Shown: in pieces, positions 6,001 through 61,176 of the stretch
Position numbering within the stretch: position 1 is the stretch's first letter
How the letters are laid out: each line of letters opens with the position of its first letter
From: Minisyncoccota bacterium
GTDB taxonomy: Bacteria > Patescibacteriota > Minisyncoccia > Phycocordibacterales > SBAW01
Reading direction: 5' to 3'
Length of the DNA: 61,403 nt
Assembly: GCA_035510635.1 (NCBI GenBank)
Contig: DATKGU010000006.1
Coordinates: 1-61,403 of the forward strand
The notes under the pieces: model-generated
Databases searched by the model: none
What the model saw: the letters and a program-made list of their open reading frames with translations, nothing else
What the model was told of the DNA's origin: nothing
Program-made: the position numbers and the translations under genes

Positions 6001-9000
6001 AGAGGCGCTCGTTTGCAGAGGATAGGTTGCCGTAAGTGAAATTACGCCTGTGTTGGTGATGATGCCGGTTGAAGGCACGTAGTTGATACCGTTGCCACCC
6101 GAGAGCGAGCTGGAAGATAGTTTATTATTAAACGTTGCATAATCGGCCAAAGAGAGTTTGCCGTTTGAAGTGAGTGATGCAAACGGCAGGTTAAAGGTTT
6201 GCGTGTTGCCGCTTGCGGTAATGGTAAAGTCGGTGCCGTTGGTGGAGGTTGCAAGCAATTGCGTGCCGCCGTTTTGTGTCTGCCCTGCCGGACCGATCGA
6301 CGTGATGCCGATGCCGTTTGTGGTGAGTGTGGTGCCGTCAAACGTGAGGCCTGAGCCAACAGTGAGCGGCCTCACGGAGCCGTTTGCATTGGTGGCAAGT
6401 ATGCCGCTCACGATGTTGCTGATAGCAAAGCTCGTGGTTGTTGCATTGGTAGTCGTAGCATTTACGCCCGTAAAGTTTTGCAATGTGGTGGAAGCGGTTG
6501 CGAGGATAGTGCTTGCCGTAAAACCGCCGTTAAATGCAATTTGTGATGAAGTAGCGTTGGCAATAAACGGATATGCAAACGTATCAAAGTTGGATGCCGA
6601 GAGCCCCTGCCACGTGCCGGCAAAGTTGGATGAGGCGTTGGTAAAGTTGTTGACACCACTAAAGGTATTGGTGTCGGTAAGGAGCGTTGTGGATGACATC
6701 GGAATTATTTTGTTGTCACCGAGATTAAACGTGGTGCCGTTTACCGTGATGCTTGAGTTCACTAGTTTGTTGTTGGCAATACTGCCCGCGAGCATCGTGT
6801 TGGTCACCGTGCCGGTATCGGTTGTATAGACGCCATTGGTGACCGTGCCTGCGTTGCCCGTAATGCTGGCATTGAGTGATGAGGTGGAAACCTGATATAG
6901 TTTCCCGCTATTTCCTGCAATGAGACCCGAATAATTATTTATCGAAGCAAGATTTGGCAGTGTGGTGATGCCGGCAATCGACGAGCTTGCCGAGAGGCGG
7001 TTGTCAAACAAATTGCCAAAGGTGGTGGTGTAGACACCGTTGGTCACCGTGCCTGCGTTGCCAGAGACACTGCCCGTGATGAGATTGGTAAAGATGTTGT
7101 TACCGGAGAAGGTGTTTGAGTCAGTGAGCACGGTGGAACTTGCAGCCGTAATCGTTTTATTGTCACCTAAGTTAAACGTGGTGCCGTTGATGGTGAGAGA
7201 TGAGTTTTGGAGAGCGGCGTTTGGCAAGTTGAGCGAAGACGATGCAATGCCATACAACGTGCCATTGTTGCCTCCGATAAATCCTGTGAGCGCCCCAACC
7301 TGCACGCCGCCGCTTAAATTAAGTTTTGTGCTGGTCGCATTGTTGGGGAACGGATAACCAATTTCGTCCGAAATATTTAATTTTGCATTGAGCGCATTTT
7401 GCAAATCGGTTTGGCTTGCAAGCGTGCCACTGATGTTGCCCCAGGTGGCGCTGTTTATACCCAAGCTCGAGGTTGATATAAGGTTATACCCTCCCGTTCC
7501 ATTGCCGAGCAAAAGTTGGCCGTAGCTCGGCGCGGTGCTGGTGCCGGTGCCGCCGCTTCCGATACCGAGCGCTTGCGAGAGTGTGAGCGCGCCGTTGTTT
7601 GCAAAGCTCGAGGTTGCGGTTGCGCCAAACGATGCGCTCTGATACGCCGCGAGGTTGGTGCTGGTGGCGTTGGTAAATACGCCGGTCGACGGCGTGTTGG
7701 CGCCTATCGGCGAGTTGTCGATCGAACCGCCGTTGATAGTGAGATTGTGGGCAACATACGCATTGGCAATAGGAGTGCCGTTCCACACGCCGGCAATAAT
7801 GGTACCAAACGACGATGAGCCGCTAATGGTGAGTGTGCTTGCCGAGACGGTTGGCGCGGTAAGCGTAGTGCCGTCAAATGTAAAGTTGTTGCTCGCCGTA
7901 ACCGCGTCGGCCGTGGCGTTGGTGTAATACACCTGATTGGCAACGTACGAGCTCGGTACATCGGTGAGCCCGAGGAAGGTGCTCGAGCCGCCACCGCCGC
8001 CGGTGCCGCAGTCGGAGCCCGTGCCCGAGATAATACCGTTGGCACCAACATGGAGACACTGTACCGAGCCGGTAACGCTCGCGAGTTTAAGAGAGCCGTT
8101 GACCGTAATGCCGCCATTTACCTGGAGCGCACCGGTTGTCGTTGCGCCGCCGGCAATCGTGAGGCCGCCTGTTTGTGTGCCATTGCCAATCGTTGATGAT
8201 GCCTGTGAGACAAAGCCCGCACCAAAAGTTTGGAGTGATGAGTAGAGGTTGGCTGTGGTAGTACCAAAATTAGTCGAGAGTGTCACCGCTCCGGTTGAGC
8301 CCGAAACTTGCAGAGGATATGTTGCCGCGAGCGAGGTCACTGCGCTGGTGAGGTAACCACCGGGAGCTTGATAGTCGGTGCCGGCAACTGCAGGTACAAC
8401 CGAACCGTTTGCATTTGTTTTAAGCAATGTCGAAGTGATGTTTGAAATCGCGAGGTTGGTGGTGGTGGCTTGTGCAAGCGTGGTGTTGCCGCTCACCTGC
8501 AGTGTGCCGGTTGCGGTAATATTTGCCGTAGTAAGATTGTTGGAGATATATGCACTGCCGTTGACCGAGAGTGCTTGCGTAGGATTTGTGGTATCAACAC
8601 CAAAATTGCCGTTGGTAATGTAGGTGCCGCCGTTGCCGTTAGGGCTGATTGAGATGCCGCCGTTAGTTAAGCTCGGTACGCTGATAGTGCTGCCGCTGAT
8701 TTGGATGTTGCCTGCAAGCGTACCGCTTGGGAAGAGCACCGCCGAGCTGTCGCTGGTGTTAAAACTTTTGCCACCAGTTAGAGTTACACCCGATTTAATC
8801 AAAAGTGCGCCGGTGCCCGATGGATTGATCTCGATATTTGCGGTGCCGGTTGTCTGCATGACCAAGTTTTCGTTGACATCAGAGGAGACAACGACATCGT
8901 TTGATGCATCGGTATGGAGCACCTCTTGGCCGTTAACATAGAGCGAGCCGGGGCCAACATAAATGTCTTTCCACGTGTTGGCGGCAGAGCCAAGCGAGTA

Positions 9001-11715
9001 CGTGTTGGCAACAGAGGGAATAATGCTGCCACTAATACCGATGTTGCCGGCAAATGTTGAAGTGCCGGTGCCGGTCACCGAGAGATTTTGGAGCGAGGTA
9101 GCGCCGTTAAAGGTGTTGGCATTGCTAAAGATATTTGCAGTGTAGGTTTTGGGGATCGTGCTTGATGCGTCGATAAATGCGTTTACAAGCGCGTTGTTGT
9201 AATAAAGATTGGTGATGCCTTGTTTCAAACCATCGGTAGTGGTTGCATACCAGTCCGAAAGATTTAATTTTGCATTGAGCGCATTTTGCAAATCGGTTTG
9301 GTTGCTGAGTGTGCCAACAATATTTCCCCACGAAGGATTGCCGGAAGCTGCAATGCCGAGGCTCGAAGTTGAAACAAGACTGTATCCTCCCGCTGCGTTG
9401 CCGAGCAAAAGTTGGCCATATACCGGCGCGGTGCTTGTGCCAGTGCCACCGTTTACAACACCTATGGTGCCAAGACCAATGACTCCCGTGCCGCCGTTGT
9501 ATGTAATGCCGTTAGCTCCGCTCAAACTACTCGAGGATATTTTATTTTCAAACGTTGCGTAGTCGGCAGGTGTTAAAAGGCCGCGCGCACCAAGCGAAGC
9601 ACTGGGGAGATTGTATGTAATAAGATTGCCGCTCGCGGTGATAGAAAAATCGTTGCCGAGAGTTGATGACGCAAGTGTTACGCTCGGGCCGCTTTGCAAT
9701 TGGCTTGCCGGACCAATCGAGGTAAATGTGCCACCACCGCCACCGATGATGCCCAAGCTCGATGTTGCAAGCAAGTTGTAGCCGCCGGTGCTATTACCAA
9801 CCAAGAGCTGGCCGTAGCTCGGCGCGGTGCCGGTGCCGGTGCCGCCGTTTGCAATGCCTATGGTACCGAGGCCAATGGCACCGGTTGCCCCGTTGTAGGT
9901 AACACCATTAGTGCCGCTCAAGCTGCTTGAAGATATTTTATTGTTAAAGGTAGTGAAGTCGGTTGAGGAAAGATAGCCGTTTGATGCGAGACCCGATTGT
10001 AAAATGCTAAATGCGCCGGTAGTTGAGTTGTATGCAAGAGGCGCAGTCGCCGAGAGTGAGCTCGGAGCCAAGAGGCCGAGTGATGTTGTCGAGACGGTGA
10101 GGACGCCTGCGTTGTTGGAGAGGCCGGTGCCAAGAAGCGATGTAAAGTAGTTGCCGGCTCCAAGACCAAACGTGGAGGCATAGAGCACACTGGTGGTTGC
10201 ATTAGTGGCAGTAACTTGTTGCAGCGTCGTTCCGCCTGTTGCCAAAAGATTAACCAACGTGGTCTGCCCTGCATCATTTACGGCAAAGAGCGTCGTCGAA
10301 GCGCTGTTGGCAATCTCAAATGCGTTTTCGTTGCCGAGGCCTACGCCCCACACGGTGAGTTTTGCATACGGCGTGGTGGTACCAATGCCAACCTGCTCAT
10401 TATTGGTGGTGAGGTGCACCACGGTGCCGGTGTCGGTCCAACCGCCCGCAGCCGATGCAGTAAAGCTCTGATAGCTCGAGCAATCGTTGGAGTACTCAAG
10501 CTGGCCGGCTATCTCGGCAAAACAACCGTTTGAGGAACCGTCGTTGGAGGCAATGCTGATAACGCCGCCGTTGCCGAGTGAGAGTGTTTGGGTCGGGTTT
10601 GCGGTGCCGACACCGAGGCGATTGTTAACGGCGTCCCATACAAACTCGGTCGAGCTCGCATCAAACGCACCGCCGGTATTAAACTGGATGGCGCCCGTAC
10701 TGCCCGCGGCATTGCCGCCGCTCGTAATGCACACGCCCGCAACGCTAAAACATCCCGAAGCTAAGTCGATGCCGTTGAGACCCGAGATACTTCCGCCCGA
10801 TATGTTTGCACCCGTTATGCTGCCACCGGTGATGACAACGTTCGAAAGACGGTCGATGATTTGCGAGAGCGCGATGTTGTTGGTGTTACCGCCGCTCGAG
10901 TACACCGGCCCCGGCGCGCTGTTGATGTTGCTAAAAATAACCTGGCGCAAATTGTTGGAGAGCTCGTTGAGCTGCGTAGTGAGAGCATCTTGAGTGACGT
11001 AGCTGCTCAAGTTTGCAATCGGAGCGGGTGCCGACTGCGGCAAAGTTTGAGTAGATGCAGGCGCTTGTTGTTGAGGAAAAGTCTGGTTGAGGCTTCCGAG
11101 CCGACCCGAGGACTTTTCAGAGACAACTGGTGCCGGAGTCGAAGTTGTCACAGCAGAAACAGGTGTCGGCGAGACAGGTTGCGCCGGAGACACTGCAACA
11201 GTTTGCGATGAGTGATTGCCAAACAAAAACGCCAACACGCTTGCAAAAAAATTATTTGAGGAGGGAACCGCCAAATTCGGCGTTTGAGGAGGAGCCGCAA
11301 AAAACGGTGACTGCACCGACGCAAGCACTGCGGCACCTTGTGACGAACCGCCAGTCTCAAGCGGACTCTCAAAAGGTGTCGCAATCCCTCCTGCGTACAC
11401 AAGCGACGCAAACAAAAATGTTCCACCAAGCACAAACGCAACACTCTTACCGGCAGCCGAATGCAAAAAACTTGCCGTGCGCAACCCTTTAGTTTTTCTA
11501 TATACCTCTTGCTCTTTTTGGCGCTCCTCGGCCAATTCTTGTGCACGGGCCATACGCGCCGAAGCGCGGGATTTTTCAAAAGCGGCAATAGATGACTCTT
11601 TTACAAACCAGGCATTATTGATTCGCTCACCCTCAAGTTTGCCTTCGCGGCAGAGTTTGCCAACATAGTCCGGAGCGCACGCAAGGCGCTTTGCCGCCTT
11701 GCGTGCAGAAAGCAT
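1..11715 (-). CDS. Giant membrane-anchored surface protein; the C-terminus lies beyond the left window edge (at least 3,905 codons). Layout: HTH_17-like N-terminus, one TM helix, P/S/T/Q-rich linker, tail-fibre-like Gly/Thr/Ser/Asn repeat modules, LVIVD-repeat beta-propeller, then more repeats.
   Basis: Hand translation of the minus strand from ATG 11715 (AGGAG just upstream) gives MLSARKAAKRLACAPDYVGKLCREGKLEGERINNAWFVKESSIAAFEKSR. A TM segment SVAFVLGGTFLFASLVYAGGIA follows. I then read more than 1,400 codons down to about 7490 without a stop, and also about 5160-3660. The LVIVD block (GKYAYVADDSHGLDVVDI, about 4228-4285) is in the same phase, with the first codon base at positions divisible by 3. 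The track lists no minus-strand ORF in that phase anywhere in 1-11715. That is only possible if the ORF opened at 11715 never meets a stop before position 1. An alternative in-frame GTG start exists at 11757. Confidence 0.85.
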   Translation of the reverse strand, partial: MLSARKAAKRLACAPDYVGKLCREGKLEGERINNAWFVKESSIAAFEKSRASARMARAQELAEERQKEQEVYRKTKGLRTASFLHSAAGKSVAFVLGGTFLFASLVYAGGIATPFESPLETGGSSQGAAVLASVQSPFFAAPPQTPNLAVPSSNNFFASVLAFLFGNHSSQTVAVSPAQPVSPTPVSAVTTSTPAPVVSEKSSGRLGSLNQTFPQQQAPASTQTLPQSAPAPIANLSSYVTQDALTTQLNELSNNLRQVIFSNINSAPGPVYSSGGNTNNIALSQIIDRLSNVVITGGSITGANISGGSISGLNGIDLASGCFSVAGVCITSGGNAAGSTGAIQFNTGGAFDASSTEFVWDAVNNRLGVGTANPTQTLSLGNGGVISIASNDGSSNGCFAEIAGQLEYSNDCSSYQSFTASAAGGWTDTGTVVHLTTNNEQVGIGTTTPYAKLTVWGVGLGNENAFEIANSASTTLFAVNDAGQTTLVNLLATGGTTLQQVTATNATTSVLYASTFGLGAGNYFTSLLGTGLSNNAGVLTVSTTSLGLLAPSSLSATAPLAYNSTTGAFSILQSGLASNGYLSSTDFTTFNNKISSSSLSGTNGVTYNGATGAIGLGTIGIANGGTGTGTAPSYGQLLVGNSTGGYNLLATSSLGIIGGGGGTFTSIGPASQLQSGPSVTLASSTLGNDFSITASGNLITYNLPSASLGARGLLTPADYATFENKISSSSLSGANGITYNGGTGVIGLGTIGVVNGGTGTSTAPVYGQLLLGNAAGGYSLVSTSSLGIAASGNPSWGNIVGTLSNQTDLQNALNAKLNLSDWYATTTDGLKQGITNLYYNNALVNAFIDASSTIPKTYTANIFSNANTFNGATSLQNLSVTGTGTSTFAGNIGISGSIIPSVANTYSLGSAANTWKDIYVGPGSLYVNGQEVLHTDASNDVVVSSDVNENLVMQTTGTANIEINPSGTGALLIKSGVTLTGGKSFNTSDSSAVLFPSGTLAGNIQISGSTISVPSLTNGGISISPNGNGGTYITNGNFGVDTTNPTQALSVNGSAYISNNLTTANITATGTLQVSGNTTLAQATTTNLAISNITSTLLKTNANGSVVPAVAGTDYQAPGGYLTSAVTSLAATYPLQVSGSTGAVTLSTNFGTTTANLYSSLQTFGAGFVSQASSTIGNGTQTGGLTIAGGATTTGALQVNGGITVNGSLKLASVTGSVQCLHVGANGIISGTGSDCGTGGGGGSSTFLGLTDVPSSYVANQVYYTNATADAVTASNNFTFDGTTLTAPTVSASTLTISGSSSFGTIIAGVWNGTPIANAYVAHNLTINGGSIDNSPIGANTPSTGVFTNATSTNLAAYQSASFGATATSSFANNGALTLSQALGIGSGGTGTSTAPSYGQLLLGNGTGGYNLISTSSLGINSATWGNISGTLASQTDLQNALNAKLNISDEIGYPFPNNATSTKLNLSGGVQVGALTGFIGGNNGTLYGIASSSLNLPNAALQNSSLTINGTTFNLGDNKTITAASSTVLTDSNTFSGNNIFTNLITGSVSGNAGTVTNGVYTTTFGNLFDNRLSASSSIAGITTLPNLASINNYSGLIAGNSGKLYQVSTSSLNASITGNAGTVTNGVYTTDTGTVTNTMLAGSIANNKLVNSSITVNGTTFNLGDNKIIPMSSTTLLTDTNTFSGVNNFTNASSNFAGTWQGLSASNFDTFAYPFIANATSSQIAFNGGFTASTILATASTTLQNFTGVNATTTNATTTSFAISNIVSGILATNANGSVRPLTVGSGLTFDGTTLTTNGIGITSIGPAGQTQNGGTQLLATSTNGTDFTITASGNTQTFNLPFASLTSNGKLSLADYATFNNKLSSSSLSGGNGINYVPSTGIITNTGVISLTATYPLQTSASTGNLTISTAFGTTTNNVFSGTNTFNAASAFTAFASFANASSSQISAATGFFNYLNATSSTATSTFAGGLAVGSNALTVLQNGTVGIGNSTPGKTLDVTGTGRFSSTLTLSGSPSCTGNQALQTDSQGNVVCGALAIANASTGGGWTTNNIGTVSLATTTDMVAVGATTTPYAKLTVLSSNTASTTLALVAASGQTANVIDIYNSTGALNSVFTSAGNFGLGSTSPAAKLGVNGNGFFAGNLTATGALNVGGNTLVATAGGNVGLGSSTPASHLAIAGGDITHVAAGNPSIAATVSEIGSAHAYGTYVSGHYAYVADYQGGLRVIDITNPAVPTTVGSNSSYIASPAADAVVVAGKYAYVADQNFGLVIFDVSNPAAPNAVGTYALSGTTQSLALSGRYLYINDFNNHAVRIIDVSNPAAPTLAGSLLPPGGTNSLPIALAISGKYLYVGDQLPAIYVVDVSNPAAPAIVGTYNNSSVVGGPAAMYVSGKYLYVADQVTGLYTLSVSNPASPALVGQYPPSHSAYYNGVQAAGTNLYVADHSGNTLVLDMSTPTAPSLVGSIASAGTPNSIFVAGKYAYVADDSHGLDVVDINGLSTPAANIGSLAANSVDVSDSLNVGQNIFAGGGLDVGAGGIFSRGGFAALGSTTLGASLMVSGSTTLQNFTALNATTTNATSTSLFASTFGLGAGSYFTSLLGAGLVNVNGALTVSTSSLSLFGTSSLSAVAPLAYNSSTGAFAISQAGLASNGYLSSTDYNTFNNKISSTSLSGGAGIGYVPSTGVITNTGVVSLAATYPLQTSASTGNLTISTAFGTTTNTGLGNNLLVYTNNSGVFIGASTSTLNIGGNANTATALQNPRTINGVSFNGTANIVIASTTLLGDSNTFSGNNTFSNLITGSVSGNAATVTTNANLTGVVTSVGNTTSFATSPTFTGTLTVPNLLATASSTFQNFTGVNATTTNATTTSFAISNIASGNLLKTTTGGALVAAVAGVDYSPAGADTFAYPFPLNATSTKLNFSGGVQVGTLAGFIGANSGTLYQIASSSLNLPNAALQNSSLTINGTAVSLGGSITVASTTLLADNNTFSGNDTFNNTITGSVSGNAATVTNGVYTGTFNGLFDPRFITDLAATTSVNSITALSNLASVGTITSGIWNGTAIGDSYIASAANWNTAYSDRITSATYPLSISSNVISTVATSSLNLTTSSFLSPNISQWTNNAGYLTSLSGAASSTLLGDTNTWSGTDIFNNLITGSISGNAGTATKLAATKTINSVAFDGSANITITAASSSLLGDFNTFSGTDYFNNPIKIGTLGGLIAGNGGLTYAVSTTSMNASITGNAGTATALASAPTKCSAGNYTLGIDVNGNAQGCTAAGTGTVTQVNTNYSMTGGGFTTSGTLAVATSSLYTGLTGGLPYFSGTNTFGAIAAGTGGYVLSMSGGIPAWVATSSINNGVTSITASAPLTGGTITTTGSIGCTTASSGVAGCLGSTAFDTFNNKQAALSTPTYPLLLTGTTLSTAFGTTTNSGMTAGNLYVGSNGVFQTSASSSIFGYTPLNPTRNVNTTYPLQGGGALTGDLTLTSAFGTTTTWGMGNNGLVMTGSTGIPFSQATSSAIAMSISGNAATVTTNANLTGVVTSVGNAASLGSFTSANLSTALTDETGTGGVAVFSASPTITGTLGAAAISATGFINTSGTTGGYQIDGNTVLYASSTTHSVQVGQGAGNTSNVNAAYNVIVGYNNGNNITTGADNVLLGGYAFGSHSNLTSGSNNISLGYDISLPSATANNQLDIGNLIYGTTVNGTGSTLSTGNIGIGTANPQAKLDVQGTASSTNLQVASVLNAFVGAGTNGLLYGIASSSLNLPNSALQNSSITINGTLFNLGDSHTITAASSTLLTDANTFSGINNFTNASSNFAGTWQNLSPSAFDTFGNNWNIVNGYLTPTTTLGIILTASSTIGNGTQAGGLTISGGATTTGNLSLPAGAQSLPSLNFGATSGYNTGIWSPGAG

Positions 11716-12190
11716 ATGCTCCTCTTGTATTCCTGTTATTTTTTTAGGCGAAATCACTTTTATTTATACGGAGAGTTCGGCTTTACTAGTATTTATTTTA
11801 ATACGAACTTCACTCTATGTATGCAAAAAACAAAACAAAAACTGTGGATAGCGTGAATAAAAAAATTAAATATAAAATTTATACAAAAGGTTTATTGCAT
11901 TGGTATACAAGCCTATAATGCTTACACAAAAAAATAAAAAATACGCAGATCAAATCAACTTGTCACCGTTTTTATTAAATAATTTTGTTTAAATTTATCT
12001 AAAAATTCGCAATAAATTGTTCAAACGAGAAACGTTACAAATAAAAGAGTAATCGCCAAGGCAATACGATATATCGCCTATTCTTAACGATATCTCGGCT
12101 AACAGAGGTACTGTTAAAACCTAAAAAGTCATCTTGTTTACATAAAAATTTTGCCCTAAATTTTTCCGGTAAAAACAAGTAACCGAGAAC

Positions 12191-49330: not shown

Positions 49331-50155
49331 TTATTCTAACTCAAACTCTGCCGCCTCACTATCGGTTTCGGATGTTCGTTTGCGGAGCATGGGCCGCGCA
49401 TATAAGACGGCCGCAATGCTGAGTGTTATGACAGAAAGGAACCCGAGCGCATACCAATAGAGCGGCGGCACGTCGGCAAGCAATGGCGATGCGCCGAGCG
49501 TTGATGCTATTCCACTTACTGCTTTGGATGTTTTTGTTGCAGTAGATTTTTTTGTCGAAATTTTTGTGGAGGCCGCAGGCGCCGCCGCGTCTGACGCGGC
49601 GGGTTTTACTATTTTCGCGCTCGGCGCGTCACTGCCGGGGTTGGGCGCGCCCGGTATCCAACTCACGCCGTTTAGATGGAGTGAGTTGCCATCGCCTGCC
49701 GCACCCATGGCGGCGGCGTAGGTGGCAGAGTCGACAGCCACGAGTGTCTTGTCTTTAAGCGCAAAACTCCCGCCTGTGTTGAGCAAACTAAAAGGGCTTT
49801 TAAATAGTGCGCCTGCCTGCGCAGGCAGGCCCGTGTACGCGGGATAGTCGGCTAAAAACTTTTGTGCATCGGCGGTAATGATCGCCGACTCTCCTGCTAC
49901 CAAAGTACTCGTGCCTTGTACGAGCGTGAGGTTGTGATTAACGCCCGACTCAAATAATTTATAGCCCGCGAGGTCGACACTGCTCGACCCCTTGTTGGTT
50001 ATCTCTATCCATTCGCGGCCGGTGTCCGCGCCGGGCGCGTCGTACATGATCTCCGTAAACCGCACTTGTGCGAGCGCACTCGTGGGTAGCACACATATAA
50101 AGAAGAGTGCCGCGGCAGAGATTAAATTACGACTGTTCGTTGTCCAAACTTTCAT
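49331..50155 (-). CDS. Secreted lamin-tail-domain (LTD) protein with a C-terminal TM anchor
   Basis: Signal peptide ISAAALFFICVLPTSALA. LTD motif VRFTEIMYDAPGADTGREWIEITNKGSSSVDLAGYKL. C-terminal hydrophobic segment LYWYALGFLSVITLSIAAVLYA followed by basic residues. Confidence 0.8.
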   Translation of the reverse strand: MKVWTTNSRNLISAAALFFICVLPTSALAQVRFTEIMYDAPGADTGREWIEITNKGSSSVDLAGYKLFESGVNHNLTLVQGTSTLVAGESAIITADAQKFLADYPAYTGLPAQAGALFKSPFSLLNTGGSFALKDKTLVAVDSATYAAAMGAAGDGNSLHLNGVSWIPGAPNPGSDAPSAKIVKPAASDAAAPAASTKISTKKSTATKTSKAVSGIASTLGASPLLADVPPLYWYALGFLSVITLSIAAVLYARPMLRKRTSETDSEAAEFELE

Positions 50156-51947
50156 CGACGGCTAGCATAGAGCGCAGCTCGTCTTCTGGCAACTTGGGCG
50201 CAGCCTCGGCCTTTGGAGCAACGGCATGGAGCGTGGCTTTGAGGTCCACGGCATGTACCGGTTTGCTTTGAGTATTGCCCGAGGGTTTTGACTCCTCCTT
50301 CTTGCCAAGCGCCTGCGCAAGGGCCTCTTTAAGGCTCTGGGAGCCCTCTAGAGGCGGTTTTTGGGGCAACGGAACACTTATTATGCCGCTGCTTCGAGCT
50401 GCGGCTTTAGGTACTATAGGCTTGCTTTGGGTATGCGATGAGGGCGCGGCTTTTTGGTACTCGGGGACTATTCTGGCCACTTCTTTTTTAACCTCCTCGG
50501 CCTTCTCAGACAGAGGCATCGGTGTGTGCGAAGTGGGCGTGTGAGTTGGACGGAAGAAAGCAGAAACAGCAGGCTTCCCCGACGCTTGGGTCGGGGTCCC
50601 GACCCCTTCGGGGCGTCGGGATTTAGGTTTTGGTTTTTCTTCTACTAACGGATTATCGTCTTGCACCTGCTGAATGACACGCTCAACTTCGGCACGCGAC
50701 GCGCTAAACTGCGCGCGCGAGCTTGCAATAACCTCATCGACAAAACTTTGCGGAGGAGGATCAAACGGCGGCAATGTCGCGGCGCTAAACGGCGGCGAGC
50801 CGACGCCGTCTATCATGAGCGAGAGATATATTTGCGCGAAACCCAAGTTGACCAAATCGGTCGCCATAAACACGGGTTGGAATATTGTTTCCAAAACTTC
50901 GGCGTCAAACGGCCCCACGCGGAAGGAAATGGTCGTGCCCACGTTGCCAAACACCGCATCGCGCACCTCCTCCTCCATCTGCTCTATATATTGATGCGCG
51001 ATAATCAAATTGAGTTTGTATTTGCGCGCCTCGGAGAGAATGTCGGCAAAGCTCTCGTTGGCAAAGTTTTGAAACTCGTCGACGTAAAAATAAAATTGCG
51101 GGAGCGTGGCGAGCGTCGCGGCGGAGATATCGGCGCGCGACATCGCCGCCAAATAAATTTTGGTTACGAGCATCGAGCCCAAAAGCTGCGCGTTGACCTC
51201 GCCCACACGGCCTTTAGAGAGATTGATGATTAAAATCTTTTTGTTGTCCATCATCTCGCGCAAATCGAAAGACGACTTGGCCTGCCCCACAATGTTGCGG
51301 ATGAGCGGGTTGGAGGTAAACTGCCCCACCTTGTTTTGGATGGCGGGTGTCGCCTCTTGCGTATAGCGGTCGGAGTAGCTGGCAAACTCGCCGTTCCAAA
51401 AATCTTTAACGATCGGGTCTTTAACATTGTCGACCACTTTTTTGCGGTAACTTTTGTTGACCAACATGCGGTTAACATCGAGCATCGTGGCACCCGGATA
51501 CTCCAGCAGTGCAAGCAACGTGTTGGAGAGGATGTACTCCATGCGGGCGCTAAAGGCGTCGACCCAGATTTTTTTAAACGCGGTAATGAGGCCGGAGACC
51601 ACGAGATGCCGCTTGTCGTAGCCGACATCCTCCATCACGTTAAAGCCTATCGGGTGCTCCATGTCGAACGGCGCAAAATACACCACGTCTTTTTTGCGGT
51701 GCTCGGGGATGTACTCAAGCAAGCGCTCGGCGGTTTGGCCATGTGGGTCGATAAAAGCAACCGCCTCGCCGTTGCGTATGTCTTGTATCGCCAAGTTCTC
51801 GAGCAGTGTTGACTTGCCCATGCCGGTCTTGCCGATGATGTACATGTGCTTGCCGCGGTCCTTTTTTTTAATGCCAAAAGGCACCTCCTCGCCGCGCGAG
51901 TTGGTGGTGGCAAAATACGTAATTTTATTTGGGTCTTCCTGCATCAA
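50127..51947 (-). CDS. TraD/VirD4/TrwB-like (type IV secretion coupling-protein-type) P-loop ATPase with a disordered C-terminal tail
   Basis: Walker A IIGKTGMGKSTLL and Walker B-like FYFYVDEFQNF. Motifs IAHQY and GNVGTTISFRVG are typical of this family. No N-terminal TM. The last ~170 aa are P/K/A/S-rich. Confidence 0.7.
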   Translation of the reverse strand: MMQEDPNKITYFATTNSRGEEVPFGIKKKDRGKHMYIIGKTGMGKSTLLENLAIQDIRNGEAVAFIDPHGQTAERLLEYIPEHRKKDVVYFAPFDMEHPIGFNVMEDVGYDKRHLVVSGLITAFKKIWVDAFSARMEYILSNTLLALLEYPGATMLDVNRMLVNKSYRKKVVDNVKDPIVKDFWNGEFASYSDRYTQEATPAIQNKVGQFTSNPLIRNIVGQAKSSFDLREMMDNKKILIINLSKGRVGEVNAQLLGSMLVTKIYLAAMSRADISAATLATLPQFYFYVDEFQNFANESFADILSEARKYKLNLIIAHQYIEQMEEEVRDAVFGNVGTTISFRVGPFDAEVLETIFQPVFMATDLVNLGFAQIYLSLMIDGVGSPPFSAATLPPFDPPPQSFVDEVIASSRAQFSASRAEVERVIQQVQDDNPLVEEKPKPKSRRPEGVGTPTQASGKPAVSAFFRPTHTPTSHTPMPLSEKAEEVKKEVARIVPEYQKAAPSSHTQSKPIVPKAAARSSGIISVPLPQKPPLEGSQSLKEALAQALGKKEESKPSGNTQSKPVHAVDLKATLHAVAPKAEAAPKLPEDELRSMLAVDESLDNEQS

Positions 51948-56857: not shown

Positions 56858-56942
56858 TGGTGGGCATGGGGAGACTCGAACTCCCAAGGATTACTCCAGC
56901 CGCTTCTGAGACGACAGCGTATACCAATTCCGCCACATGCCC
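56858..56942 (-). tRNA. tRNA-Leu (anticodon CAG), class II with long variable arm, CCA encoded
   Basis: The minus strand reads GGGCATG TG GCG-GAATTGGTATA-CGC T GTCGT-CTCAGAA-GCGGC TGGAGTAATCCTT GGGAG-TTCGAGT-CTCCC CATGCCC A CCA. The acceptor stem is perfect 7 bp, with T33 and A37 flanking CAG. Confidence 0.93.
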
Positions 56943-56945
56943 TTA

Positions 56946-57557
56946 TTACGACAGAACCACTATATACCATCTCCACAAAGTAGTCCCGCGAGTCGCAGGC
57001 AAGGTTCCTTTCTTTACAATTTTCCAACCCTTCTCTTTTAACATACTCCGTACCTGTTTCTCACTGAGTAGAGTAAAGTGTCGCGGGTCTTTTTTTGAGA
57101 CTGGATTCGGCCTGTCGTCAGGAAGACTAAAATAGCCTATTGCTCCCCTTTTCATAATAGAACTGATGTTTGTAAGCATCACGTCCCAATCTTTTTCAGG
57201 AATATGTTGAAGGGTTGCTGCAGCCCAAAATCCCTCGTATTTCTTTTTGGGAAGGCTTTTTTGCTCTAATAAATTACCTTGATAAAATTTTAGCTGAGGA
57301 TAATGAGATTTTGCTATTGCGAGCATCTTTTTTGAAATATCCAACCCTTCATATGAAACTTTCCTGCCAATTCCTAAAAAAAGAGGCACATCTCGCCCGT
57401 GTCCACATCCAATATCAAGAACCGTTGCCTTTCCTTTCAAATGAACAACAAATTTCCGAAACTCTTTTTCAGAGTAAAAAGAATGGGTCTTGGAATTTGC
57501 CCACGAAGAAGCGTGTGTATCGTAATGCTTCTGATTAACCCTTTGCACCTTGTCCAT
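56946..57557 (-). CDS. Class I SAM-dependent methyltransferase
   Basis: VLDIGCGHGRDV, GLDISKKML, ATLQHIP. Confidence 0.85.
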   Translation of the reverse strand: MDKVQRVNQKHYDTHASSWANSKTHSFYSEKEFRKFVVHLKGKATVLDIGCGHGRDVPLFLGIGRKVSYEGLDISKKMLAIAKSHYPQLKFYQGNLLEQKSLPKKKYEGFWAAATLQHIPEKDWDVMLTNISSIMKRGAIGYFSLPDDRPNPVSKKDPRHFTLLSEKQVRSMLKEKGWKIVKKGTLPATRGTTLWRWYIVVLS

Positions 57558-57895: not shown

Positions 57896-58246
57896 TTAGG
57901 CCATTAATTTAATCTTTGCTGAGTTCGCTATTTTCTTGCTTACCGCTCCCACAAAAAGCCGGTACGCTAACCTGTCTTCTTTGGCATAATTAAAAGGCAC
58001 ACCTATGTGTGTTTTGCAGTGAGGACAAACAAGTTGAGTGACACTTTTCAAGTTTTCATTCTGCAAGTTGGAATATGTTTTGGAGCCATAGATGCGGTCT
58101 AGATATGTCCGTTTGAGCATACCGGGGCCATCTTTCTGGTAATAGAAAAGATGTGCGCCACATTTAGCACAGGAAATGTCGAGCAGACGCGAGTATCCGC
58201 CACGCACCCTTTTGTATTTATCACTCTTAAAAATCGACTTTGCCAT
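57896..58246 (-). CDS. RGG / 4-Cys zinc-ribbon protein, uncharacterised (paralog 1)
   Basis: MAKSIFKSDKYKRVRGGYSRLLDISCAKCGAHLFYYQKDGPGMLKRTYLDRI...LVCPHCKTHIGVP...LAYRLF. The track start 58255 is a TTG; ATG 58246 is used. Paralogous to 60524..60859. Confidence 0.7.
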   Translation of the reverse strand: MAKSIFKSDKYKRVRGGYSRLLDISCAKCGAHLFYYQKDGPGMLKRTYLDRIYGSKTYSNLQNENLKSVTQLVCPHCKTHIGVPFNYAKEDRLAYRLFVGAVSKKIANSAKIKLMA

Positions 58247-58266: not shown

Positions 58267-58297
58267 ACAAAAGAAAAGACCCCGGGTTGGCGGGGCC
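58267..58297 (-). terminator. Rho-independent terminator between the kinase gene and zinc-ribbon paralog 1
   Basis: The minus strand reads GGCCCCG-CCAACC-CGGGGTC followed by TTTTCTTTTGT. Confidence 0.6.
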
Positions 58298-58321: not shown

Positions 58322-58885
58322 TTAGCCAATTGCTTGAAGGTACTGTTCGTAGATTTTCTGAACGACCATATCAACTTCTCCAGTCGGATTGGCGATACGA
58401 TAGTCAAAGAGAGTATCGTACTCGCCGCGGGCGAGTTTCTCCAATTCAGCCAAACCGGCAGTCACGCGCGATTGAGTTGGATCGCGCTTGTCCGCCGCAA
58501 GCCTTAGTCGGAGAGTTTCCGGGTCGGTCTCAACATAGACTTTGAAGAGTCGACCTTGGAAGTGTTGCTCCATCACATCGAGCCGGTCGATGGGCCAGTC
58601 GAGGAGCGGAAATTTCTCCGCCTCGAAGGCTTGCTCAATGGGTTCTCGTGGCGTCGCATAGCGGATGTCGTATAGCTGGTTCACAACGAGGATTTTTTCA
58701 TCGCGCACCAACTTGTCCAATTTCCTTCCGCTCACCGACACTTTGTCCGTCTCTCCCCTTCGCAGTTTTCTTGTGATATAGGGGGAGATGTAGACGAACC
58801 GATCATCCAGTTGCCGGAGCCGCTGGATGATGGTGGTCTTGCCAACGCCCGAGGGTCCGAGCAAAAGCAGGAATTTAGTCTGCAT
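58322..58885 (-). CDS. Guanylate-kinase-like P-loop nucleotide kinase
   Basis: LLGPSGVGKTTII followed by SPYITRKLRRGETDKVSVS (compare the Gmk pattern S.TTR.PR.GE.DG.DY.F). Its start overlaps the 3' end of the upstream fusion gene by 11 nt. Confidence 0.75.
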   Translation of the reverse strand: MQTKFLLLLGPSGVGKTTIIQRLRQLDDRFVYISPYITRKLRRGETDKVSVSGRKLDKLVRDEKILVVNQLYDIRYATPREPIEQAFEAEKFPLLDWPIDRLDVMEQHFQGRLFKVYVETDPETLRLRLAADKRDPTQSRVTAGLAELEKLARGEYDTLFDYRIANPTGEVDMVVQKIYEQYLQAIG

Positions 58886-60524
58886 CTGCGCTTCTCCATT
58901 GGTTGAGCGTTTCCTTCAGTTCGATGACGGCATCGAGTATTTTTTGCCGCCATTCAGTTTCCGCTGGATCGTAGGGGTACAAGACACCCCGTGAGGAGTT
59001 TACGAACACGCCTCGGCCGGTAGAGTCGAGCAGTTGTCGGAAGTGGTCGAGGCTGCCGCCCTGCACGCCATATCCGGCGAACAGGATAGGCATGTCGTCA
59101 GGAATGACTTGGCGTACGCCGCTCAAGTCTGCATCGGCGATTGAAGAGAGGACAGGAATAAGGTTGGAGCCTCTGTTCCATCTCTCTGCAACCAGTTGGA
59201 GCATGTACTGCCAGAGCATCCTTCCATCCGAAAGGACAATGTTCTGTACAATATCTGCTCCGGGGTTACTGGTTTTTACAAGCACGACGCCCGCTTTGTC
59301 GCCAAGCGACTCGAACGGCTTGAGCACATCGTCACCCATGTAAGGATTGACGACGAGCCCGTCCGCTCGGATCTCCTCGAAGATATTGCGGAGGTAAGCG
59401 TCCATCGTGTTATCGATGTCGCCGACTTTCGCGTCGACGAACACCATCACCTCTGGGTAATGCTCCTGCACGTAAGCAACGACCTTCACAAGAAGCTCGT
59501 GGCCTTTCGGAAAAACATCGAAGAACGCCTTCTGCACTTTGTAAGCGCAAATATGCGGCCCAGTGATGTCGATGACCTCGCGCAGAAAGCGAGACACCTT
59601 CACTTCGTCGGACGCATGCGGTCCTATAATGGACAGCGGCATCTTGGCGAGATCGGGGTCGAGTCCGACGCACGCCAAAGTGTTTTTGCTAACCATCGCG
59701 TCCCGCAAAAGCGCAAGCGCTCTTCTGGGAGGCCGCTTTTCGGCGGAAGGGATCAGGCCAATGTGGCCCAAATGTTCTTGCTTAGCGTAGAGATGAGGAC
59801 TCGTATATTCCGTAGGAGGAATCACAACCGGGGTATAGCCTTCCACTGAGTAGCCGTTCTCGTCGAAGACTCTCGCCTTGTTTACGTTGTTAGTGGCGAG
59901 ATTGATTTTCATCGTCGGCGGTATTCCAAAGAACTTTAGAATACCAATGACTCCGCCATAGGTCCGCATGTCGATAATGCCGTCAGGAGCGACTGCGTGG
60001 GCAGCCTCGACGGTATTGATCTTCAGTAGTGTCTGGAGACGAAGCGTTGCGAGCTTGAACGGCAGTCCCAAGCCTCGGCCGTCTTGCCGAGGAATGTTGA
60101 CAACCATGCCTTCACCAGCATCGCCGATGGTTTCAAGCGCCAAAGCGAGTTGCTCTCGGCACTCGCAGGTGCGGTCGCCGAACATTTGCCCTGTCTCGCA
60201 GCCGGAATCTACTCGGATGAGGAGCAAATTGGACTTCTTGAAGACGGGCATCATATCGCCGTTGATCTCGGCATTGACGATGACTGAGTATTTTACCCAG
60301 CTATCATCGATACTGAAATCGAACTGGTAGAAGTCTCCGTAATCGGTGCGGATGAGTCCCACACCGCGCCGCGTCACGATGAACCACCGTGTCGCGCCAT
60401 TTTCAGCAACGGCAATTTGTCTGCCCTTAGGAATCATCGAATCTTTTGCTTGGTCGATGAACCTGGCAACATCCTCGGCACTTCTGCCGGTGCGATTGCC
60501 TATTTCCTCGAAGTTGAGTTCCAT
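58875..60524 (-). CDS. Fusion protein: GTP cyclohydrolase II-like domain (N) plus type-2 orotidine-5'-phosphate decarboxylase-like domain (C)
   Basis: N half: DYGDFYQFDF, RVDSGCETGQMFGDRTCECREQL, PRQDGRGLGL, NTVEAA, DMRTYG, LATNNVNK, YAKQEHLGH. This is collinear with RibA. C half: ACVGLDPDL, YKVQKAFFD, DAKVGDIDNT, VNPYMG, LVKTSNPG. This is collinear with type-2 PyrF. Both lie in a single uninterrupted frame of 549 aa. Confidence 0.85.
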   Translation of the reverse strand: MELNFEEIGNRTGRSAEDVARFIDQAKDSMIPKGRQIAVAENGATRWFIVTRRGVGLIRTDYGDFYQFDFSIDDSWVKYSVIVNAEINGDMMPVFKKSNLLLIRVDSGCETGQMFGDRTCECREQLALALETIGDAGEGMVVNIPRQDGRGLGLPFKLATLRLQTLLKINTVEAAHAVAPDGIIDMRTYGGVIGILKFFGIPPTMKINLATNNVNKARVFDENGYSVEGYTPVVIPPTEYTSPHLYAKQEHLGHIGLIPSAEKRPPRRALALLRDAMVSKNTLACVGLDPDLAKMPLSIIGPHASDEVKVSRFLREVIDITGPHICAYKVQKAFFDVFPKGHELLVKVVAYVQEHYPEVMVFVDAKVGDIDNTMDAYLRNIFEEIRADGLVVNPYMGDDVLKPFESLGDKAGVVLVKTSNPGADIVQNIVLSDGRMLWQYMLQLVAERWNRGSNLIPVLSSIADADLSGVRQVIPDDMPILFAGYGVQGGSLDHFRQLLDSTGRGVFVNSSRGVLYPYDPAETEWRQKILDAVIELKETLNQWRSADAD

Positions 60525-60859
60525 TATTCTGCTCCTTCCGATTTCTTGGAGTAGTAGGTGCCTTTCCGTAGTCGAAACGCGAGACGCTCGTCAAAGTGCC
60601 GCGTAGGCGTACCGATGAGCGCTTGGCAGCTTGAGCATACGAGGTTTTGCATGTGCCTCGGTTCGGTAATCGCCGGATCGTGTTGTAACCGCTCAAGCGA
60701 GGGTGGCGAAAAGATCCGGTTGAGATAGCAGCGCAAAAGCTGTCCGTGGCCATCCTTTTGATATGTCAGCACCAGGGTATTGCAGGCGGCGCAGAAGATA
60801 TCGATTATTCTTGCCTTACCGCCACGCACCCGCAGGTAATGGTCTCGTTTTATATCCAC
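60524..60859 (-). CDS. RGG / 4-Cys zinc-ribbon protein, uncharacterised (paralog 2)
   Basis: (M)DIKRDHYLRVRGGKARIIDIFCAACNTLVLTYQKDGHGQLLRCYLNRI...LVCSSCQALIGTP...LAFRLR. GTG 60859 is preceded by AAGGAGGAG at a 3-nt spacing. The track start 60880 is a TTG lying inside that SD context. Its TAA stop shares one base with the ATG of the fusion gene (TAATG). Confidence 0.7.
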   Translation of the reverse strand: MDIKRDHYLRVRGGKARIIDIFCAACNTLVLTYQKDGHGQLLRCYLNRIFSPPSLERLQHDPAITEPRHMQNLVCSSCQALIGTPTRHFDERLAFRLRKGTYYSKKSEGAE

Positions 60860-60862
60860 GTT

Positions 60863-60871
60863 CTCCTCCTT
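60863..60871 (-). promoter_or_regulatory. Shine-Dalgarno sequence AAGGAGGAG for zinc-ribbon paralog 2
   Basis: The minus strand reads CGCAAGGAGGAGAACGTG. Confidence 0.6.
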
Positions 60872-61176
60872 GCGTATCAAAGGACTGGGTTAAGCTGAGT
60901 GCAGAATACAATAAAAATGGCGAAATAGCAATCAGGGCGAAAAATATTTTATCAAAATGATTTTTGATTTTTTATGGCTCCAGGGATCGAACGCAGAAAA
61001 TGGCTTTAACAAACGATGCGCCATGGTCGCACTAAAATGGACATCTTGACGATGCTAAAAAACGGCTCTGTTAACGCACCTCGGTCGGTCTCACTAACGT
61101 GTGGGTTTGTATGATGATATACGAGCCTATTTTACACGAAACGGAGGCCTCTAGGGTAGTCACTCGGGGGTAGTTT

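Follow-up and report, generated by a model that had tools for sequence, protein, structure and literature searches.

Fusion of orotidine 5´-monophosphate (OMP) decarboxylase to another enzyme is known from UMP synthase (PyrE-PyrF), in which a type-2 decarboxylase is joined to a neighbouring activity of its pathway. Homologues of GTP cyclohydrolase II (GCH II, RibA) also have a precedent in pyrimidine metabolism, namely URC1 of the yeast URC pathway for uracil catabolism. In a stretch of 61,403 nucleotides from a genome assigned to Minisyncoccota (contig DATKGU010000006.1; hereafter the window), one minus-strand gene (58875-60524) encodes a protein of 549 aa with a GCH II-like domain in front of a type-2 OMP decarboxylase (PyrF or OMPDC) domain. 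It is flanked by genes for a small zinc protein (ZN-A) and for a kinase with the fold of guanylate kinase (Gmk), and the gene for a second zinc protein (ZN-B) follows. These parts belong to a conserved, undescribed module that is typical of ultra-small symbiotic prokaryotes, mostly Patescibacteria (the Candidate Phyla Radiation, CPR) and DPANN archaea, and that runs in the order zinc protein (ZN), GCH-like enzyme, PyrF and Gmk-like kinase, often with a second ZN at the end. No new fold is involved, and PyrF performs an ordinary step; of the module itself, its paralogues of RibA and Gmk, and the zinc-protein family, no description was found in the literature searched.

The module was delineated by a scan of one genome per species with the family-specific motif DSGCETGQ, which gave 78 loci; open reading frames (ORFs) were called in all of these and assigned by iterated profiles of the four window proteins. 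The loci are overwhelmingly from Patescibacteria (Saccharibacteria, Paceibacterota, Nomurabacteria, Uhrbacteria, Magasanikbacteria, Peribacteria and others) and DPANN archaea (Micrarchaeota, Nanoarchaeota), with a small number from elsewhere. GCH-like, OMPDC and Gmk-like genes occur in this order in 43/78 species loci, and many of the remaining loci are cut by contig ends. ZN is found directly upstream of GCH in 50/78 and anywhere in the locus in 67/78, and 24/78 have at least two copies, the second being downstream. A first-pass annotation of the window, made from the sequence alone, had proposed a dedicated, co-expressed multi-enzyme unit acting on nucleotides and had named conservation of the four-gene neighbourhood as a check; the recurrence in 78 species loci supports this proposal. 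Natural fusions add to the picture. ZN is fused to GCH in P0085, P0090, P0094 and L059, GCH to OMPDC in this window and others, OMPDC to the kinase in many proteins of ~469 aa (one of them labelled Babeliales), all three enzymes to one another in P0030, and the kinase to ZN in archaea. Because every adjacent pair of ZN-GCH-OMPDC-kinase-ZN is thus fused in some lineage, the four parts can be considered one functional unit, and the proteins probably work together as a complex. In three Peribacteria loci (L073, L081, L082), OMPDC and ZN are encoded on the strand opposite to the GCH-like gene, and a conserved gene whose product (~380 aa) has no Pfam match lies in between.

The fused gene is genuine. 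The fear that its domain junction might be an artefact joining two ordinary genes proved groundless: an identical protein in the same four-gene arrangement is found in an independent Logan assembly of SRR8676595, and public data hold ~30 clusters of the GCH::OMPDC fusion that are 36-88% identical. In an unbootstrapped neighbour-joining tree of the GCH-like domain, the fusion appears in at least four separate clades, namely the window's clade, two archaeal clades and the triple fusion, and the window's clade nests among relatives that have GCH and an OMPDC-kinase fusion instead. The independent assembly, the many fusion clusters and the at least four clades of this unbootstrapped tree rule out an assembly chimera. 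As the first-pass annotation had suspected, a described fusion of GCH II and OMP decarboxylase is not to be found in the literature searched, and source annotations say only “orotidine-5´-phosphate decarboxylase”, “RibA” or “hypothetical”. Its reservation was that the architecture might already be common and annotated; the architecture is indeed not rare, the module being widespread in unfused form among Patescibacteria and DPANN archaea, and the labels are misleading. In the genome of Southlakia epibionticum, for which transposon sequencing (Tn-seq) data exist, no gene is annotated as GCH II or OMP decarboxylase.

In RibA, Tyr105 is required for ring opening and deformylation; it reportedly hydrogen-bonds the zinc-activated water that attacks guanine C8, and a Tyr-to-Met change at this position in GCH II paralogues from Streptomyces is said to lead to a formamidopyrimidine product. 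GCH II chemistry yields a monophosphate product, and RibA is intrinsically very slow and shifts conformation upon binding of GTP. According to a recent review, RibA also hydrolyses the pyrophosphate and releases GMP in 7-10% of turnovers, and the covalent adduct at Arg128 is now disputed. The GCH-like domain has the fold and Pfam family in common with RibA (E. coli 2BZ0, M. tuberculosis RibA2 4I14), matching PF00925 GTP_cyclohydro2 over residues 59-232 (75 bits, E 6e-21), as well as the Cys triad, Arg128 and the residues aligned with the phosphate side. In the alignment to E. coli RibA (2bz0), the zinc triad C109/C120/C122 corresponds to Cys54/65/67 and R187 to the alpha-phosphate Arg R128, and these four residues are invariant in ~80 family members.

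Other features set the domain apart, and its first description as a full-length RibA is not upheld. The RibA equivalog models are missed by a wide margin (TIGR00505, 80.9 bits vs a cut-off of 205.85; NF001591, 88.9 vs 148), Leu161 stands at the position of Tyr105, where all family members have Leu, Met, Gln or His, and ~50 residues at the N-terminus are an addition without a RibA counterpart. When aligned to E. coli RibA, ~80 members from bacteria and archaea have an almost invariant signature of 29 sites. In RibA numbering, the family retains Cys54/65/67, R49, R94, K101, D126, R128, N150/151 and K154; besides Y105L it has ~10 further fixed changes, H51D, E53G, D58Q, S62D, R64T, H89P, N100F, R103A, N118A and Y182H. 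As judged from these residues and the curated cut-offs, which rule out an orthodox RibA, the domain is not RibA itself but a paralogue that has become fixed. Unlike RibA, it has an obligatory zinc-protein partner, and a riboflavin context is not seen in the stretches covered; ribD, ribB, ribH and ribE are absent from the 61-kb window and none of them is recurrent in the 78 loci. Glu110, at the position of RibA Leu55, was considered as a new general base replacing Tyr105 and was dropped because the position varies in distant members. An enzyme of the URC1 type was rejected as well (NF005536, PRK07198-type, 17.5 bits vs a cut-off of 403). Unlike URC systems, the module neighbourhoods contain no URC4, urea amidolyase or uracil phosphoribosyltransferase (UPRT), and their context is biosynthetic or kinase-linked rather than catabolic.

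In one archaeon (locus L004, contig Ga0307374_10000001), a canonical-type GCH II of 251 aa with H51, R103 and Y105 is located tail-to-tail with the module (10703-11458). Riboflavin synthase, a CTP-dependent riboflavin kinase, a DCD/dUTPase-family gene, dihydroorotate dehydrogenase (DHODH) and a phosphoribosyltransferase are found within 8 kb. RibA and the GCH-like enzyme are therefore not redundant.

The second half of the fusion is, by its motifs and curated model, an orthodox type-2 OMP decarboxylase, as first described. It matches Pfam OMPdecase over residues 285-522 (E 7e-18) and passes TIGR02127 pyrF_sub2 with 164.4 bits against a cut-off of 110.6, such that one frame does hold both a GCH II-like and a type-2 PyrF domain. 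The whole domain can be aligned with solved type-2 enzymes, with matches in the Protein Data Bank (PDB) from Leishmania, Toxoplasma and Mycobacterium, and the closest solved relatives are the UMP synthase-type decarboxylases of Leishmania and Toxoplasma. Unlike in UMP synthase, however, the fusion partner is the RibA-like enzyme and/or the Gmk-fold kinase and not orotate phosphoribosyltransferase. The motifs VGLDP, DAKVGDIDNT (with the catalytic DxKxxD), KTSNPG and GYGVQGG are all present, and the catalytic and phosphate/uracil-binding motifs are retained in at least 50 of 53 family members. A second OMP decarboxylase-like paralogue lies beside the module in L080 (8096-8989, minus strand) and has an altered catalytic motif, VDCKKDENIPT instead of DxKxGDIxNT.

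The kinase is related to Gmk and to PhnN, the ribose-1,5-bisphosphokinase, whose fold it shares; it also keeps the P-loop, the lid Arg and the phosphate-binding residues R38, R41 and E44. It matches Pfam PF00625 Guanylate_kin at 47 bits but remains below the equivalog cut-offs of both Gmk (TIGR03263, 55.7 vs 160.45) and PhnN (TIGR02322, 44.1 vs 156). For comparison of residues in 46 members, we used yeast Guk1. The P-loop Lys (K14), R38, R41, E44, Y78 and the lid Arg R146 are retained, Y50 is replaced by Lys, and the residues that bind guanine are gone: S34 is Pro in 44/46, E69 is Val, Ala, Ile or Thr, and D100 is Pro in 44/46. These three positions and its frequent fusion to PyrF or ZN set the module kinase apart from the Gmk/PhnN family. 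The cut-off and the guanine-residue test rule out an orthodox Gmk, and on this comparison the kinase is not a guanylate kinase. Of the three activities that the first-pass annotation named (GCH II, OMP decarboxylase and Gmk), only OMP decarboxylase looks orthodox, and the other two enzymes are fixed paralogues that have lost family-defining residues.

The zinc protein belongs to no Pfam or NCBIfam family; all Pfam matches are below cut-off, the top ones being to zinc domains of the beta-tent type. ZN-A has two CxxC pairs, both invariant in the family, and the motif YQKDGxGxLxRxYLxRI. A profile search of 1.84 billion representatives gave only 579 clusters; ZN occurs almost only with the GCH-like/PyrF/kinase module, and in ten long members sampled, the only fusion partners recognized by Pfam are GCH-like and Gmk-like domains. 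An AlphaFold2 model from a 20-sequence alignment reached a predicted local distance difference test (pLDDT) score of 84, compared to 51 for a single-sequence model. The best Foldseek matches of the model in the PDB are weak (Mis18/Yippee, the bacterial cereblon CULT domain and the C-terminal domain of RIG-I/DRH; E 0.03-0.5, template modelling (TM) score 0.34-0.50), and no beta-tent structure in the PDB matched with an E-value below 1e-3. Beta-tent domains (Mis18/Yippee, cereblon CULT, the RIG-I C-terminal domain, MsrB) are, like ZN, beta-rich, ~110 aa long and equipped with two CxxC pairs. Unlike CULT, ZN lacks the Trp cage, and unlike the beta-tent families it has an invariant motif of its own, YQKDGxG...RxYLxRI. 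We regard ZN as a new family that is, tentatively, distantly beta-tent-like at most. The nucleic-acid binding suggested at first is not evident in this module-specific protein, which occurs fused to the GCH-like or the kinase domain. A division of ZN into “GCH partner” and “kinase partner” subtypes was tried and abandoned, as the motifs gave no clean partition.

The genomic neighbourhoods point to pyrimidines. When the remaining ORFs of all loci were clustered and representatives were run against Pfam, the recurrent neighbours of the module were all pyrimidine-related. First, in three Patescibacteria loci (L044, L046, L085), the cluster carB-pyrE-pyrD-pyrB-(pyrC) is followed directly by ZN-GCH-OMPDC-kinase-ZN, and in some relatives the PyrF of the module is the pyrF that goes with a complete set of these genes. 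Second, five further loci, three of them from Peribacteria and two archaeal, encode DHODH close to the module. Third, a ThyA-like gene (~208 aa) abuts the module in L026, L028, L037 and L048; its short product covers no more than the C-terminal half of the ThyA model (E 2e-11). A variant is found in eight loci (L049, L052, L054, L057, L058, L084, L087, L088), where the GCH-like and ZN genes, in either order, precede the gene for a true cytidylate kinase (148 bits to PF02224), which is often accompanied by a THEP1-type NTPase. These loci have neither PyrF nor the Gmk-like kinase, and genes for TrmB-family regulators and a ThiF-like protein are nearby. The replacement of PyrF and the Gmk-like kinase by cytidylate kinase implies that the invariant core consists of the GCH-like enzyme, ZN and a pyrimidine nucleoside monophosphate (NMP) kinase. 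Genes for riboflavin, F420 or pterin synthesis are not conserved near the module in the 78 loci.

We favour a role as a pyrimidine-nucleotide module in which the GCH-like enzyme acts on a nucleoside triphosphate (NTP) other than a guanine nucleotide, a reading that comes close to an even chance. PyrF would convert OMP to UMP, and the Gmk-fold kinase would turn a pyrimidine NMP (UMP, CMP or both) into its diphosphate; the loss of the guanine pocket and the cytidylate kinase that stands in for PyrF and the kinase in the variant make such substrates probable. The RibA-like enzyme would take a nucleoside triphosphate that is not GTP, cleave off the beta and gamma phosphates, carry out a zinc-dependent hydrolysis at an amidine carbon of the base, and hand the resulting monophosphate to the same kinase. 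Its zinc centre is kept, and the retained basic and polar residues are presumed ligands of phosphate and Mg. Since the chemistries of the GCH-like enzyme and of PyrF both give a nucleoside monophosphate, the simplest logic of the fusions would be that both enzymes feed the adjacent kinase. ZN may dock on both the GCH-like enzyme and the kinase, be it as a partner, as a scaffold or as a subunit that binds a ligand. Among the options offered by the first-pass annotation, a part in core pyrimidine metabolism of reduced symbionts is thus preferred, and the core family is less likely to serve in natural-product synthesis or in defence.

One specific candidate is the reaction (d)CTP -> (d)UMP + NH3 + PPi or 2 Pi (pyrophosphate or two phosphates), which would provide a second route to UMP/dUMP, converging with that of PyrF. 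It would be chemically natural, because the zinc-bound water of GCH II attacks an amidine carbon (guanine C8) to which cytosine C4 is equivalent, and both the cytidylate-kinase variant and the ThyA-like neighbour would be in keeping with it. The bifunctional dCTP deaminase-dUTPase (DCD-DUT) would be the functional analogue, as it turns a pyrimidine triphosphate into a deaminated monophosphate; it differs in its unrelated fold and lack of zinc, and the resemblance is hypothetical. Taken by itself, this particular reaction is unlikely, and a URC1-like opening of the uracil ring may be considered in its place. In its widest form, our proposal is that the RibA-derived enzyme and ZN catalyse a nucleotide transformation assigned to no enzyme family, e.g. 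that of a zinc-dependent (d)CTP->(d)UMP deaminating pyrophosphatase or of some other “cyclohydrolase” for pyrimidine NTPs. Together with PyrF and a UMP/CMP kinase of Gmk fold that is blind to guanine, they would form a metabolon that is the standard CPR/DPANN way to balance or complete pyrimidine pools. This combined proposal is tentative, and we give it clearly less than even chances.

Several observations weigh against a pyrimidine-nucleotide role. Position 55 of the GCH-like enzyme is Glu in most members and variable in distant ones, and no new general base was identified. The notion of a rebuilt base pocket derives from changes at conserved positions and not from base contacts read off a structure. 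The kinase also resembles PhnN (44 bits), and one distant GCH-like member, that of Pedobacter, has surroundings that resemble a defence island. In one archaeon, a gene of the dCTP-deaminase/dUTPase (DCD/dUTPase) family is found 6 kb from the module, which makes it less likely that the module stands in for that function. In most loci, the window among them, no other pyr genes are nearby. Most Saccharibacteria are reported to lack de novo nucleotide synthesis, and the favoured reading does not account for how an orphan PyrF would obtain its OMP.

The GCH-like enzyme and ZN may instead be a purine-sensing regulatory pair that binds GTP without full ring opening, Tyr105 being lost, and tunes PyrF and the pyrimidine NMP kinase to the supply of purines, with ZN as adaptor. 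GTP activates the bacterial UMP kinase PyrH, and the pair would achieve the same for simple monomeric NMP kinases. The invariable loss of Tyr105 alongside retention of the residues aligned with the phosphate side and the zinc site would suit such a sensor, as would the slowness of RibA and its conformational response to GTP, the constant partnership of GCH and ZN with a pyrimidine NMP kinase (Gmk-like or Cmk), and the adaptor-like fusion of ZN to either partner. However, ~10 further active-site positions have changed and then become frozen in both bacteria and archaea, which looks like a new specificity rather than retained GTP binding, and pseudo-enzymes seldom keep a complete metal centre over such distances. 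We consider a regulatory pair improbable.

Equally improbable is that the GCH-like enzyme still acts on GTP and gives another product, either a formamidopyrimidine nucleotide, as GTP cyclohydrolase III would, or GMP, such that the module makes or recycles an unusual purine-derived nucleotide and the kinase re-phosphorylates it. This is closest to the “unusual nucleotide” of the first-pass annotation. Leu or Met occupies the position of Tyr105, and Met there is the residue said to switch the product in the Streptomyces paralogues; GCH II-family paralogues with other roles exist, e.g. the formamidase BrbF, and the monophosphate product of GCH II chemistry suits a kinase. A GTP-derived product would nevertheless leave unexplained the tight and repeated fusion to PyrF, the pyr-operon context and the exchange of the kinase for cytidylate kinase; the kinase has lost its guanine-binding residues, and riboflavin, F420 and pterin genes are not conserved nearby.

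A conflict system, acting in defence or as a toxin by making a toxic or chain-terminating nucleotide analogue or by depleting a nucleotide, is very improbable. It is brought to mind by what surrounds the Pedobacter member (genes for an NB-ARC/TPR STAND NTPase and a P-loop kinase, another RibA-like gene and an insertion sequence), by the mobile-looking region of L010, where PIN genes, transposases and a gene for a large TPR protein are close by, and by a weak match of the kinase to the viperin-associated kinase VakA (E 5e-5) in PADLOC. PADLOC has no family for the fusion or ZN-A, though, and gave a marginal match for ZN-B (E 0.005), and no copy of the family is present in 2.9 million viral contigs; a known defence system was rejected on these grounds, and island-like contexts are limited to distant members (L074, L010). 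In CPR bacteria and DPANN archaea, the module is located among housekeeping genes (SecY, PolB, RecR, CysS, DnaX) or inside a pyr operon, in genomes of <1 Mb, and its active site is frozen across two domains of life, unlike fast-evolving defence genes. The Pedobacter region itself (L074, Pedobacter sp. MC2016-05, 5899-11212) comprises the distant GCH-like member (36% identical), then an 868-aa NB-ARC/TPR STAND NTPase, together with a P-loop kinase (AAA_18), a 220-aa protein and a second RibA-like GCH II, the whole directly following an ISL3 transposase. The region has the look of a conflict island, as yet undescribed, with enzymes of the GCH II fold at its centre.

Ordinary ribA, pyrF and gmk genes, clustered or fused by chance and serving as the genome's sole copies in normal pathways, would account for the Pfam matches, for the automated labels “RibA” and “PyrF” and for pyrF within genuine pyr operons in three relatives, but are hardly credible given the RibA and Gmk equivalog scores far below cut-off, the loss of Tyr105 and of the guanine-binding residues in essentially all members, the canonical-type RibA that coexists with the module in L004, the absence of conserved rib genes near the module, and an obligatory, module-specific zinc protein with no part to play in the three standard pathways.

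The module, which many of their genomes contain, would bear on how CPR bacteria and DPANN archaea, a large share of microbial diversity, obtain and balance nucleotides. By labelling the module “RibA”, “PyrF” and “guanylate kinase”, annotation pipelines give the false hint of fragments of riboflavin, pyrimidine and guanine pathways and hide a dedicated system. If the RibA-like enzyme does take a pyrimidine triphosphate, this would be a new reaction class for the GCH II fold, and it could also identify a missing UMP/CMP kinase and a missing C-to-U conversion step in these organisms. Between them, the natural fusions span all four junctions, which argues strongly for a physical complex, and they offer ready-made constructs for biochemistry and structure determination.

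In the window, all four reading frames that had been noted at first are present on the minus strand (Table 1), and the overlaps and the strong Shine-Dalgarno sequence described for them are confirmed in the sequence. The ORF of ZN-A as mechanically listed is 60524-60880; the real start is most likely the GTG at 60859, which gives a protein of 111 aa as in the closest homologues (P0121-P0126) and matches the end coordinate in the first-pass annotation. The stop codon of ZN-A and the start codon of the fusion overlap in TAATG (60524-60528), and the fusion gene overlaps the kinase gene by 11 nt (58875-58885). The fusion is thus translationally coupled to the upstream zinc protein and the downstream kinase. 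ZN-B had been overlooked. A terminator was said to close the unit ahead of it, and a hairpin with a T-tract is indeed present; ZN-B, just past the hairpin, belongs to the unit, and the hairpin may act as a partial terminator.

Table 1. Features of the module locus (positions in the 61-kb window)
Feature	Position	Strand	Basis or remark
Shine-Dalgarno sequence AAGGAGGAG	60863..60871	minus	Ahead of the first gene, 3 nt before GTG 60859; read off the sequence
ZN-A, zinc protein, 111 aa	60524..60859	minus	ORF; GTG start inferred from Shine-Dalgarno sequence and homologues
GCH-like domain of the fusion, residues 1-259, RibA paralogue	59748..60524	minus	PF00925, alignment to E. coli RibA 2bz0, family conservation
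Pro/Arg-rich interdomain linker SAEKRPPRRA, residues 260-269	59718..59747	minus	Translation and domain limits
Type-2 OMP decarboxylase (PyrF) domain of the fusion, residues 270-549 and stop codon	58875..59717	minus	TIGR02127, PDB matches, motifs
Gmk-fold P-loop NMP kinase paralogue, 187 aa	58322..58885	minus	PF00625, residue table vs yeast Guk1
Terminator-like hairpin GGCCCCGCCAACCCGGGGTC then TTTTCTTTTG	58268..58297	minus	Between kinase gene and ZN-B; G+C-rich with T-tract
ZN-B, second zinc-protein paralogue, 116 aa counted from ATG	57896..58246	minus	ORF; 40% identical to ZN-A

Pfam searches with all large ORFs of the window found no other pyr or rib gene, in agreement with the first-pass annotation. 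They showed a very large glycan-synthesis cluster and genes for SecA, Obg, GatB and MurB. The cluster (21944-49320, ~27 kb) is unusually large for a small genome and comprises at least 10 GT4, GT2 and GT9 glycosyltransferases, a Wzy-type ligase and a Wzx-type flippase, along with GDP-mannose dehydratase, epimerases, UDP-glucose dehydrogenase and sugar methyltransferases. Adjacent to it (49331-51947, minus strand), a type IV coupling protein of the TrwB/TraG type (606 aa) is encoded beside a lamin-tail-domain protein, which fits the type IV secretion system (T4SS) of Patescibacteria. A single open frame of at least 3921 codons (1-11763, minus strand) runs off the start of the window and accounts for the strong positive GC skew over the first 10 kb. 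The C-terminal 1588 residues of its product match no Pfam family, and it is probably a giant surface protein of a type common in CPR genomes. Directly downstream of ZN-B, an S-adenosylmethionine (SAM)-dependent methyltransferase (203 aa) and tRNA-Leu(CAG) are encoded (56858-57557, minus strand). A class-I methyltransferase is found near the triple-fusion locus L006 as well; this neighbour is not conserved across loci.

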